From NCBI GenBank assembly GCA_016283075.1, contig JAEEMF010000026.1:5270-69269 (forward strand): 64,000 bases of DNA, given 5' to 3'. Position numbers and translations under genes: made by a program. This DNA comes from Bacilli bacterium. Its GTDB lineage: Bacteria > Bacillota_I > Bacilli_A > RF39 > UBA660. Of this stretch, positions 9,228-13,949 are shown piece after piece; the stretch's first letter is position 1, and each line of letters opens with the position of its first letter. Below the pieces are notes generated by a model, which was not told the DNA's origin, did not search any database, and worked only from the letters and a program-made list of their open reading frames with translations.

Positions 9228-9929
9228 ATGGTATATATGGAGAACAAAGTTATTTTAAAGTCTTTGAAGCATAGACGCAGCAAGAAAATAGAAAAGATGG
9301 TAAAAATAACTTTATTAGTGTTATTACTTGCCTTCATTCTTTTATACTTTGTATTTCGATTTATCTATAATAGTGGAAATTTTACTATAACACTCGATAG
9401 AAATCTTTATTTCGAGAAAGGAATCGTTGTTTACGATAATCCGTATGACAAGAACTATAGGAGTAGAATTCAGGTAGAGATTCCAGAAAAATTTGACAAT
9501 ATCTCTGAAAAATGGCTTCCAAGTGATATTGACAAATATGAAGGAAATCACAATGGTGATAATTACCTTGCTTATTCATTCTATATTGAAAATACGGGTA
9601 ATGACGTATCTGATTATTGGGGAGAGATTGTAATCGAAGATGTTATAAAAAATGTCGATGAGGCGATAAGACTTAGAGTATATAAGAACGGGGAATCTGT
9701 GACGTATGCTAAGTTAGCAGGTGATGGAAAGCCAGAAAGAGGAACTACTCCTTTTGAAAGTAATTCATCAATTGCAACTTATCATGTTTCAGATTTTAAA
9801 CCTGGTCAAATAGATAAATATACTATCGTGTTATGGCTGGAAGGCAATGATCCAGAATGCAACGACAACATTTTGGGTGGCGAAATTAAATTGCTAATGG
9901 AATTTAATTCAGAATTTGTCGAGAATTAA
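9228..9929 (+). CDS. Membrane-anchored/secreted protein, first member of a 4-gene paralogous family (shares C-terminal 'Y-x-I/V-x-L/I-W-L/V-EG-x-D' module)
   Basis: N-terminal Lys-rich and hydrophobic segment. C-terminal 'YTIVLWLEGNDPECNDNILGGEIKL' aligns with the C-termini of the next three genes. Confidence 0.55.
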   Translation: MVYMENKVILKSLKHRRSKKIEKMVKITLLVLLLAFILLYFVFRFIYNSGNFTITLDRNLYFEKGIVVYDNPYDKNYRSRIQVEIPEKFDNISEKWLPSDIDKYEGNHNGDNYLAYSFYIENTGNDVSDYWGEIVIEDVIKNVDEAIRLRVYKNGESVTYAKLAGDGKPERGTTPFESNSSIATYHVSDFKPGQIDKYTIVLWLEGNDPECNDNILGGEIKLLMEFNSEFVEN

Positions 9930-9948
9930 GAAGGAGAGAAGAATTATT

Positions 9949-11307
9949 ATGAATCGTAACAAAAAACGAGAACAACGTATAAGAAAAATGATAATTGCAT
10001 GTGCTCTTGCTGCAGTTGTATTAACAGCATCAACTTTCGCATGGTTCATTGGTATGCAAACAGTTAATGTTGCAAGCTTTGATGTAAACATTGCTGCAAT
10101 CGATGGTTTATCATTATCTTTAAATGGTGCTACTTGGAGTGATACTGTATATATTGATTCAGATACTTACAGTACTAACTCATATACTGGTAACACAAAT
10201 AGCTGGGGTGGAAGTGGACTTGTACCAGTTTCATCTGTAGGTGACATTGATAGTAATGTATCAAGACTTATTTTATTTGAAAAAGGAAGTTTAACTACTA
10301 CACCTGGTGGTTATAGAATCATGGCTAGCCGTGTTAATAACTACCGTGAAGTTTCAGGAGCTTTAGAAGCTGAAGCTAACGGATATGTAGTATTTGATTT
10401 ATTTATTAAAAACTTATCTGGTGCTGAATATTATCCAGCATTAAATAAACTAAATGAGGAAGCTATCTTTTTAACAACTGATTCAGCAGTTACTTCTGCT
10501 ACTAATGGTGGAGTTGCTGGAACAGGTATTGAAAACTCAGTTCGTGTTGCATTTGCACAAATCGGACGTGTTAAAGCTACAACTACTACTGTAGGAACTA
10601 TTACAGGAATTTCTTGTACTGATACTACTGATGGTGGTAAAGATGCTGAAGGTGTAACTGGAATTTGTTCAAGAACTGCACAAATCTGGGAACCAAACGA
10701 TGTTAAACACGTTGCAAACGCTGTTAACTGGTATAAAACTTCATGTAAGAAGAGAACTGGTGCTGATTTAACACTTGCTACTTCTTATAATGGAAGTTGT
10801 GGACTTGTTAAAGATGGTACTGCTAATAAAACATATGCTGTATCTGGTGTAATTGATTATACTGATCAAGTAGATGTATATGATGGTACAGAATACAATG
10901 GATATACTGAAAGTATTAATACTGTAACTACTGCAGCAGATGGATCTATCGCTGCTACTAATTCAGAAGCTGGTAAATTAGTTGCTTATCCTTACTTCAC
11001 TGATACAATGAAGAATTTAGAAGGTACAGCTAGACCAACATTCATTACTTTAGCTCCAAATAGTATTACTAAAGTAAGAATTTATATCTATATTGAAGGT
11101 CAAGACATAGATAACTATGACTTTGCTTCATTAGGAAGAAAGATTACTGTTGGATTCGGATTCACTAAGGAAAGATTTGTTGATACTGATGTTAACTATG
11201 ATGATACTAACACAGCAACACTTCCAGATGATGTAAGAAGAGAAACTAATCCAATTGAACAATATACACCAAATCCTGCTGCAACTAGCGCTACAGTTGG
11301 TGATTAA
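9949..11307 (+). CDS. Secreted fibre/matrix-type protein with SipW-cognate-like signal ('FAWFIGMQTVNVASFDVNIA'), paralogue B
   Basis: Basic N-terminus, then a TM helix, then an AWF...T-V-x-V-x-S-F-x-V motif resembling TasA/camelysin-class signal peptides. Thr/Gly-rich mature part. RBS AAGGAGA favours ATG 9949 over the listed 9916. Confidence 0.6.
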   Translation: MNRNKKREQRIRKMIIACALAAVVLTASTFAWFIGMQTVNVASFDVNIAAIDGLSLSLNGATWSDTVYIDSDTYSTNSYTGNTNSWGGSGLVPVSSVGDIDSNVSRLILFEKGSLTTTPGGYRIMASRVNNYREVSGALEAEANGYVVFDLFIKNLSGAEYYPALNKLNEEAIFLTTDSAVTSATNGGVAGTGIENSVRVAFAQIGRVKATTTTVGTITGISCTDTTDGGKDAEGVTGICSRTAQIWEPNDVKHVANAVNWYKTSCKKRTGADLTLATSYNGSCGLVKDGTANKTYAVSGVIDYTDQVDVYDGTEYNGYTESINTVTTAADGSIAATNSEAGKLVAYPYFTDTMKNLEGTARPTFITLAPNSITKVRIYIYIEGQDIDNYDFASLGRKITVGFGFTKERFVDTDVNYDDTNTATLPDDVRRETNPIEQYTPNPAATSATVGD

Positions 11308-12718: not shown

Positions 12719-12797
12719 TCTAATTTAATTATAGGATATAAAATAAAGAGTAATTAATTTTACTCTTTATTTATATCTATATATAAGGTGGTGTTTT

Positions 12798-13949
12798 ATG
12801 CCAAAGAAAAGCAGTGGAAAAACCACGAAAATGAAAGACAGATTAATAGGTGGTCACAGTATTGTGGCTAGTAGAGAACGCAGAAGGAAAAGAATGGCTG
12901 AAATAAAGAGGGAAAAACGAAATAATGTCCTTACAGCATTTGTTATCTTCTTTTTTGCAGTGCTTTTAATTTTCTCAACTTATGCATGGCTTTCAACAGC
13001 ACTAAATGTACATATTAATACCTTTAAGATGCAAGTATCTAAAAATAGTGGTTTAACTATATCACTAGATGGTATTAATTTTGGTAGTTATGTAGAAATC
13101 TCTGCAGATACTTTAATACATGAACTAGAAGGCGTATATCCAAGTAACACTAATCAGTGGGCTGGAAGTGGTTTAATTCCTGTATCTACAATGGGAGCAA
13201 GAAATAACAATACTCCTAGATTTGATATATATATTTCTGGTGGCGTTAGATACCGCTCTAGAAACAAAACTAATGGTTTTGTTACCGTAGAACTTTATGA
13301 TGAAAAAGAAGCAAGTGAATATAATAGATATATTGCATTTGATATATTCTTAAAGAATGACTCTGGTTCTCCAATAAGTGATAATCTTTATATGGATGAA
13401 ACATCATTTATTGAACTAGATCCTGAACCAGAAGATGGAGAAGAAGTTGGAGAAGAAATGGATGGACTTGTTAATTCTCTTAGAGTTGGTTTCTTAAAGA
13501 TGGGTACTGTTCCTAAAAAATCTCCAGCAAATATTGTACAAGGTATAACTTGTAATAATGATTGTAAGACTATCATTTATGAACCAAATAGTACTAAACA
13601 CTCAGCACTTTCTATTGAAAGAGCAGCTAATTTTGGAGTTGATTTAGTTGATGGTGAACCATATCCAACATTTGCTTGGAAAGATGGTAGTGGACAAACT
13701 GTATATATTAAAAATACTATTAGTGGTTCTCCACTACTAGATCCTAAATACTTTGCACTTCAAAATACTATAAAAGAATCAGACTTTACTAGTCCATTAT
13801 TTAAGATACCTGATGGTATTACTAAAGTAAGAGTTTATTTATGGGTTGAAGGACAAGATATTGATAGTTTAGAGACTAATTCAACTGGTGCAGAACTAAT
13901 TGTATCAATTGATTTATCTAAGGATAATAGCGGTTACGCTGATAATTAA
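12798..13949 (+). CDS. Secreted fibre/matrix-type protein, paralogue D ('YAWLSTALNVHINTFKMQVS', C-terminal 'VRVYLWVEGQDIDS')
   Basis: Same N- and C-terminal family motifs. RBS AAGGTGG. Acidic insert (PEPEDGEEVGEE). Confidence 0.6.
   Translation: MPKKSSGKTTKMKDRLIGGHSIVASRERRRKRMAEIKREKRNNVLTAFVIFFFAVLLIFSTYAWLSTALNVHINTFKMQVSKNSGLTISLDGINFGSYVEISADTLIHELEGVYPSNTNQWAGSGLIPVSTMGARNNNTPRFDIYISGGVRYRSRNKTNGFVTVELYDEKEASEYNRYIAFDIFLKNDSGSPISDNLYMDETSFIELDPEPEDGEEVGEEMDGLVNSLRVGFLKMGTVPKKSPANIVQGITCNNDCKTIIYEPNSTKHSALSIERAANFGVDLVDGEPYPTFAWKDGSGQTVYIKNTISGSPLLDPKYFALQNTIKESDFTSPLFKIPDGITKVRVYLWVEGQDIDSLETNSTGAELIVSIDLSKDNSGYADN

Follow-up and report, generated by a model that had tools for sequence, protein, structure and literature searches.

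The locus described here occupies about 20 kb (9.1-29.1 kb, ~15 genes) of a 64,000-nucleotide (nt) stretch from a Bacilli bacterium of the RF39 lineage (UBA660; GenBank assembly GCA_016283075.1, contig JAEEMF010000026.1, positions 5,270 to 69,269 of the forward strand), which at its full length is referred to as the window. The locus is conserved and unannotated, and it opens with four genes in tandem, g1 to g4, followed by a small open reading frame (s47), the gene g5 and a series of genes for further secreted proteins and for signal peptidases (Table 1). We consider it likely that the products of g1 to g4 are secreted paralogues of SipW type and that the genes belong to a locus dedicated to a surface structure.

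Table 1. Features of the locus and their positions in the window (aa, amino acids; ↓, predicted cleavage)
Feature	Position	Strand	Description
sigma-70 promoter	9134-9161	+	upstream of g1; consensus TTGACA, 16-nt spacer, TG-extended TATAAT
g1	9237-9929 (open reading frame 9228/9237)	+	230 aa; public gene calls for the same species start at 9237
g2	9949-11307	+	452 aa; putative secreted subunit precursor; predicted SipW-type cleavage A31↓W32
tract 1	10510-10575	+	59/66 (89%) identical to 11933-11998, offset 1423; encodes strand GIENSVRVAFAQIGRV
tract 2 (3' tract)	11030-11140	+	100/111 (90%) identical to 12489-12599, offset 1459
hairpin, g2-g3 spacer	11326-11355	+	spacer 11308-11380: -21.8 kcal/mol, z -3.75
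g3	11381-12718	+	445 aa; putative secreted subunit precursor; g2 paralogue; predicted cleavage A31↓W32
AT-rich hairpin, g3-g4 spacer	12730-12781	+	spacer 12719-12797: -20.6 kcal/mol, z -4.4
g4	12798-13949	+	383 aa; divergent paralogue; long Lys/Arg-rich N-region; motif STYA↓WL (predicted cut); C-terminal module VRVYLWVEGQDID
s47	13967-14110	+	47-aa acidic open reading frame overlapping the g5 start; kept in 54 loci
g5	14097-15746	+	549 aa; no signal peptide or family match; closes the g1-g5 unit
terminator	15728-15759		after g5
CYTH / class IV adenylate cyclase-like gene	15928-16494		lies after the g1-g5 unit and before the 1175-aa gene
1175-aa protein	16660-20187	+	secreted; motif PSLA↓RF, conserved; 45 loci
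m73	20200-20748	+	small TasA/camelysin-related protein; motif GMTYS↓IF
p294	20757-21641	+	secreted; motif FSYA↓KY; m73 homologue (hhalign 96%, E 2e-9)
p175	21700-22227	+	175-aa degenerate SipW-like membrane protein; GSM catalytic box missing; 26 loci
sp741	22364-24589	+	archaeal/endoplasmic reticulum-type signal peptidase I domain; GSM, H-R and GDAN boxes; TIGR02228 60.2 bits (cut-off 51.85)
p515 + p380	24592-27294	+	McrBC-like pair, flanked by sp741 and sipW189; kept as a module in at least 8 loci
sipW189	27305-27874	+	SipW-like archaeal-type signal peptidase I; TIGR02228 76.1 bits (cut-off 51.85)
p410	27906-29138	+	410 aa; secreted; directly downstream of sipW189; motif TLA↓WF

An earlier note on this stretch had described g1 to g4 as four tandem paralogues with a common N-terminal 'AWF' motif and a common C-terminal module, a description that fits g2 and g3 well and the other two genes in part. 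Judged by their sequences, g2 and g3 are clear paralogues (56% identity on the amino acid and 68% on the nucleotide level; proportions of synonymous and nonsynonymous differences, pS and pN, of 0.45 and 0.29, respectively, over 428 aligned codons), and both contain the 'AWF' motif as well as the C-terminal module in its literal form. The product of g4 is a paralogue too, but a distant one (~30% identical to g2), which reads 'AWL' in place of 'AWF' and in which the C-terminal module takes the form VRVYLWVEGQDIDSLETNSTGA. Finally, g1 has no such motif, carries YFVFRF instead, ends in the different sequence YTIVLWLEGNDPECNDNILGG and is probably a remote paralogue of g2-g4. Since the MAFFT alignment of g1 with g2-g4 is unreliable beyond the C-terminus, profile comparisons were used instead. 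These gave hhalign probabilities of 28-39% with a narrow g1 profile and of 82% (E 1e-5) with a diverse one, the match being confined to the last ~42 residues in every run; under permissive settings a collinear match over 231 columns was obtained at a probability of 39%. In the AlphaFold2 (AF2) models of g1 and g2 the common ending consists of a strand, EG(Q/N)D, a short helix and a second strand. The product of g1 combines an N-terminal membrane helix and a beta-sandwich with a C-terminal hairpin ('KYTIVLWLEGNDPEC...GGEIKL') that it has in common with g2-g4.

The N-terminal secretion module that had been proposed for these proteins was borne out, as a positively charged N-region is followed by a hydrophobic helix and then by the conserved motif. 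Moreover, the module is not restricted to the tandem genes. A hydrophobic segment followed by the pattern [STG][FYLWI][AS][WKIRFA][FYL] is found in seven open reading frames of the window, all of which lie between 9.9 and 29.1 kb, namely in g2 (TFA-WF), g3 (SYA-WF), g4 (TYA-WL), the 1175-aa protein (SLA-RF), m73 (TYS-IF), p294 (SYA-KY) and p410 (TLA-WF), and the motif is kept in the orthologues of all seven proteins. Among orthologues of g2 and g3 the hydrophobic core varies (1.3 bits), and conservation peaks in residues 31-60, immediately behind the proposed cut (0.15-0.42 bits). A variable core in front of near-invariant residues is the pattern expected of a signal peptide that is removed and of an N-terminus that is critical, and 'AWF' most likely represents A(-1)↓W(+1)F(+2) of a SipW-type cleavage site. 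From the predicted W32 on, the sequence of g3 is WFIGMQTVTVSSFDINIASTDGLYLSMDGQDWYYNLDAR. A type IV pilin or class III signal peptide was rejected, because neither G↓(F/M)xxxE nor G-F-T-L-x-E is present and because the motif follows the hydrophobic segment.

The predicted site, (S/T)-aromatic-A↓W-F, resembles T-W-A↓A-F of Bacillus subtilis TasA. A direct alignment of g2 with TasA (the sequence used is identical to 8aur_A in residues 28-261) places A27↓A28-F29 of TasA over A31-W32-F33 of g2, with a probability of 0.5%, which is not significant. A28 is the N-terminus of mature TasA (8aur_A; PMC9674648) and F29 is its key donor-strand residue (PMC9674648), an aromatic residue at donor-strand position 2 being a feature of both TasA and AbpX (PMC9674648; bioRxiv 10.64898/2026.01.04.697558).

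Two proteins encoded at the locus, sp741 and sipW189, could serve such a site. Both keep the Ser and His catalytic boxes and both exceed the TIGR02228 cut-off, so that the linkage to a dedicated type I signal peptidase (SPase I) that is expected of the TasA superfamily is found here twice over. The SipW model itself matches sipW189 with 62.7 bits, under its equivalog cut-off of 190. This linkage was followed through 72 genomic loci, all of them from uncultured gut, rumen or digester metagenome-assembled genomes (MAGs) labelled Bacilli, Mollicutes or Tenericutes. Their gene order resolves into a module A (g1-g2-(g3)-g4-s47-g5) and a module B (a protein of 1100-1200 aa, m73, p294 and p175), both of which recur across these loci, and a module C (sp741-p515-p380-sipW189-p410), which is present in whole or in part in about a dozen of them. 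Relative to g1, module C is found on the upstream side in six genomes and on the downstream side in another six, that of the window among them, which indicates that the peptidase linkage survives rearrangement. In nearly all loci that carry g4 it is present as a single copy after g2/g3, and a few loci lack it.

The families concerned are large. Homologues number more than 2061 for g2 (clusters at 90% identity, with top matches 60-75% identical), 837 for g4 and 1378 for g1; for the latter, 1103 clusters at 50% identity reach E <=1e-3. Some members with the g1-type domain, which is marked by the signature KYT(V/I)V(I/L)WLEGxDPEC, are fused to other regions, for example to a BspA-type LRR_5 region. 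In spite of their size, none of these families is annotated: g1-g5 have no match in Pfam or NCBIfam, a search of 92 g2-g4 family members against both collections at E values up to 10 returned no consistent family, sequence searches of the Protein Data Bank (PDB), whether started from g2 or from the family profile, returned nothing, and no relevant description of the RF39/Bacilli version of the locus was found in the literature.

The earlier note had further proposed that a recent duplication or gene conversion lies behind the similarity of g2 and g3; the former is ruled out by our comparison across genomes. The two genes constitute separate orthologous groups, which are found next to each other in at least 40 genomes. 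Outside the 3' tract discussed below, identity is 63% between g2 orthologues and 62% between g3 orthologues as compared to 56% between g2 and g3 of the same genome and 54% between g2 and g3 of different genomes; because g2 is nearer to a foreign g2 than to its own g3, the duplication predates these lineages. The comparison of orthologous loci and of strains that had been recommended as a check likewise revealed conserved, collinear loci and no sign of recent duplication: along 5.2 kb, two other assemblies of the same species align collinearly with the window and differ from it by 2 and 6 single-nucleotide polymorphisms, none of which lies in the tracts. Then again, the copy number of g2 and g3 differs between genomes, ranging from g1-g2-g4 over g1-g2-g2-g2-g4 to as many as three g2-g3 pairs. 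Two or three tandem g2-g3 pairs lie between g1 and g4 in some genomes (loci L025, L026, L016, L043 and L047), and a separate lineage contains only undifferentiated g2-type genes in the order g1-g2(-g2)-g4. The unit of duplication looks like the g2-g3 pair rather than the single gene. Such variation implies that unequal crossing-over has occurred over evolutionary time, and it is the one observation in favour of the view that g2 and g3 are recently duplicated or actively recombining genes for variable adhesins whose shared tracts drive recombination or phase variation. In addition to the age of the duplication and the collinearity of the three assemblies, this view has to contend with the lack of any clear chimera of g2 and g3 N- and C-terminal halves among ~80 additional genes classified with half-gene-specific hidden Markov models; mixed calls were confined to the undifferentiated g2-type lineage and rested on margins of a few bits. 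Moreover, the longest exact DNA match between g2 and g3 is 25 nt, and the middle region, for which variability had been suspected, is not hypervariable, since full-length identity among orthologues of different species-level MAGs amounts to 60-75%. None of the marks of a phase-variable cassette, that is long identical tracts, chimeric alleles and structural variants within the population, was thus found, and we consider recombination or phase variation through the tracts highly implausible.

But why would paralogues of such age retain stretches of similar DNA? The two tracts in question had been called near-identical. At 89-90% identity they are better termed similar, and the positions originally assigned to the copies in g3 were off by 5 nt and 1 nt, a register in which identity is 26%. 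Both tracts encode segments that are among the most conserved of the protein, since residues 196-210 and 361-405 represent two of the three top segments of the conservation profile; the second tract, with a 77-nt core of which 73 positions are identical, encodes the C-terminal beta-hairpin ...APNSITKVRIYIYIEGQDIDNYDFASLGR. We therefore attribute the similarity to the purifying selection that acts most strongly on these segments in both paralogues, combined with the few synonymous choices of an AT-rich genome, and hold that selection and codon bias account for most of it. The check that had been set, synonymous divergence in relation to protein conservation, is answered differently by the two tracts. 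Over the whole of g2 and g3, synonymous sites are near saturation for an AT-rich genome, and at identical residues the codons of g2 and g3 agree in 70% of cases, with 57-59% expected from codon usage. The 3' tract exceeds expectation (same codon at 30 of 35 identical residues, 21 expected, post-hoc p ~5e-4) and has a pS of ~0.15 as opposed to 0.45 for the gene, whereas the excess in tract 1 at 10.5 kb is not significant (16 of 21, 11.6 expected, p 0.03).

Old or short-patch gene conversion could account for this modest excess, as could co-adaptation of interacting subunits. Conversion that homogenizes the 3' tract by concerted evolution could act in addition to purifying selection and would explain why same-codon use in the tract is more frequent within than across genomes (0.777 versus 0.665) when the 40 genomes that have one g2-g3 pair each are compared. 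In the window the tract has the same codon at 37 of 41 identical residues, and comparison of its g2 with the g3 of 39 other genomes gave a mean same-codon fraction of 0.675 and a maximum of 0.79; in addition, the Y/W state in 'YI(Y/W)IEGQ' co-varies between the paralogues in 31 of 40 genomes, where 17 would be expected. However, the remaining gene shows a within-genome excess as well (0.664 versus 0.621), which genome-specific codon usage is sufficient to yield, the co-variation could instead stem from physical contact between g2 and g3, and the p-values were calculated post hoc and take no account of phylogeny. Furthermore, orthologues are as well conserved in the tract as paralogues: among four genomes DNA identity is 0.85-0.94 between orthologues, 0.87-0.92 between paralogues of one genome and 0.82-0.88 between paralogues of different genomes, and orthologues of the nearest genomes are as close or closer (0.92 for g2 and 0.93 for g3 between the window and locus L004, 0.90 between g2 and g3 of the window). 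Finally, residues that are diagnostic of either paralogue (FIT/FMT, FIT/FMK, RIY/RVY, KVRIY/KLRVY and VAF/VNF) are kept inside the tract in nearly all genomes. A contribution of short-patch conversion is rather doubtful and would be minor at most, and gene conversion between tandem paralogues, the aspect of the locus that was flagged at first, turns out to be ordinary and mostly unsupported.

Downstream of g5, module B begins with the 1175-aa protein, which is a candidate for a tip or adhesin component and has an OmpL47-type domain match below cut-off. The following gene product, m73, provides a connection to TasA, as its family matches B. subtilis TasA with an hhalign probability of 90.7% (E 1e-6) over the signal peptide and the first strands; its match to PF12389 is weak and below cut-off (E 0.05), a sequence search of the PDB brought up TasA at E ~0.5, and the hhalign probability of m73 with g2-g4 reaches 31-43% only. 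The degenerate p175 is related to the sipW189 family (hhalign 95.5%), matches the NCBIfam SipW model weakly and may be a pseudo-peptidase or an accessory factor. In module C, sp741 continues beyond its second membrane helix into an acidic C-terminal region of ~570 aa, partly coiled and partly globular, which has no family match. The neighbouring p515 is a membrane-anchored P-loop ATPase (Walker A GISGTGKTS) that matches the candidate defence family PDC-M26A (E 2e-38), the sole match in a PADLOC scan of the proteins of the locus, and p380 contains DUF2357 (E 2e-9); the pair is an unexpected partner for a secreted-fibre locus or possibly a hitch-hiking defence pair. The last protein, p410, retains I(T/S)LAWFAY(S/T)G in its orthologues from 7 loci and is similar to m73 (hhalign 68%) and to g2-g4 (64-70%), the latter similarity being confined to the signal peptide and the first strand.

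The layout of the first genes suggests that they are expressed together. A terminator-like hairpin after a DUF362 gene is followed by the promoter upstream of g1, whose hexamers match the consensus in 12 of 12 positions and which is the sole such site within 8900-16700. Together with the terminator after g5 and the hairpins after g2 and g3 it delimits a g1-g5 transcription unit, with which graded expression would fit. Neither spacer hairpin has a clean T-tract; that between g2 and g3 may be a leaky terminator or an mRNA-stabilizing element, and both may determine the ratio of subunits by acting as attenuators or mRNA-stability elements. The overlap of s47 with g5 suggests translational coupling of this pair, which is kept in 54 loci and both members of which lack a signal peptide and a family match. 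The perfect promoter, the hairpins and a local GC content that is the highest of the window are consistent with abundant structural proteins. A scan of the whole window with Rfam gave no matches. The CYTH gene that separates the unit from module B is shared, among the loci compared, with one other, L005, which is an assembly of the same species.

How might these components act together? We propose, at roughly even chances, that a secreted surface fibre or matrix of TasA-superfamily type has g2, g3 and g4, and probably also g1, as its structural components. The precursors would be exported by the Sec machinery with a SipW-type signal peptide and be cut by sipW189, by sp741 or by both after the Ala of the motif, which would expose an almost invariant new N-terminus (WFIGMQTVNVASFDVNIAA...). 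This N-terminus could be donated as a strand to the next subunit, whose beta-sandwich it would complete, and the invariant C-terminal hairpin (...ITKVRIYIYIEGQDIDNYDFASLGRKITVGFGF) may form part of the interface between subunits. We rate polymerisation by strand donation at even chances or slightly below. The two anciently diverged proteins g2 and g3 would be the major subunits, g4 a minor, adaptor or terminal subunit, and g1, which has the C-terminal hairpin, a base embedded in the membrane or a membrane-proximal anchor or nucleator.

Several findings speak against this proposal. PF12389 misses g1-g4, and of the 92 g2-g4 members it retrieves none, even when E values up to 10 are admitted; the signal-peptide model TIGR04088 has no proper match, as it picks up 2 of the 92 weakly (E ~0.09). 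The comparison of TasA with the g2-g4 profile is as insignificant as that with g2 (hhalign 0.5%), and Foldseek retrieved nothing significant from the PDB (best E 0.27; CanA and AbpA at E 2-3). The subunits measure 380-500 aa, about twice the length of known TasA-superfamily subunits, a membrane ATPase is not expected for a fibre that self-assembles by donor strands, and both cleavage and polymerisation are what we infer from sequence. Another, rather unlikely possibility is that the locus specifies a class of its own of fibres with large subunits (~45 kDa) on host-associated uncultured Bacilli, possibly an alternating heteropolymer of g2 and g3, whose kinship with TasA would be remote or absent. 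In that case, a signal peptidase with a large cytoplasmic domain, a membrane-bound McrB-like ATPase and a DUF2357 partner would take part in assembly or regulation as components that are not known from TasA-type systems. A further explanation dispenses with polymerisation and regards g1-g4 as surface-coat or envelope proteins in a tethered layer, with the N-terminal helix as an uncleaved anchor and 'AWF' as an aromatic belt at the membrane interface. Weak fold matches to fibre subunits would agree with such a coat, as would the AF2 models of g2 and g1, in which one continuous N-terminal helix runs across the motif, the absence of small residues at -3 and -1 in g1 and the cytoplasmic N-region of g4, which with 40-75 aa is unusually long. 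However, the signal peptide of AbpX is cleaved in spite of its 54 residues, and an uncleaved anchor would not readily explain why these genes have kept their link to two catalytic archaeal-type signal peptidases through rearrangements, why seven families of the locus have (S/T)-x-A/S at the end of the hydrophobic segment and why the core is variable and the residues after the motif are nearly invariant, as in signal peptides that are removed. We therefore deem the coat unlikely. That the proteins are not structural subunits but secreted enzymes or glycan-binding proteins, such as camelysin-like proteases or glycoside hydrolase accessory domains, is in our view quite improbable.

The g1 and g2-g4 families are large and strongly conserved and are covered by no Pfam or NCBIfam model. 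If the proposed fibre exists, it probably ranks among the major and abundant structures on the surface of a common uncultivated group of gut bacteria and would matter for how these adhere, aggregate and interact with their host. The TasA superfamily would then include subunits that are much larger and come as several paralogues. For annotation, our results define a signal-peptide motif of the locus and provide several thousand 'hypothetical proteins' with a concrete, testable label.

Of the known systems, the tapA-sipW-tasA operon of B. subtilis and CalY/camelysin (PF12389) of B. cereus are the obvious ones to compare. The locus differs from them in that g2-g4 are matched by neither PF12389 nor TIGR04088 and are roughly twice as long, in that each locus contains 3-7 large paralogues among ~15 genes, and in that it encodes two or three peptidase paralogues, one of which is fused to a 570-aa domain, as well as a membrane-bound P-loop ATPase. 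Different from tapA-sipW-tasA, it contains no recognized homologue of TapA. The chaperone-usher pilins (CfaB, CS17, CooA, Saf and Fim/Pap) are another comparison. The locus has neither chaperone nor usher, and its hosts are presumably monoderm; the likeness is weak and on the level of the fold, and homology is unlikely. A third comparison is with the archaeal filaments of the TasA superfamily, which comprise the bundling pili of AbpA, AbpX, the Saci_0406 threads, the CanA/CanX cannulae and Tafi; in its proposed mode of action the system would resemble those of TasA, AbpA and AbpX. TasA-superfamily loci encode an SPase I, an SPase-accessory protein, minor subunits, a tip protein and a membrane anchor (bioRxiv 10.64898/2026.01.04.697558). 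The gene content of the locus described here parallels that of these published loci.

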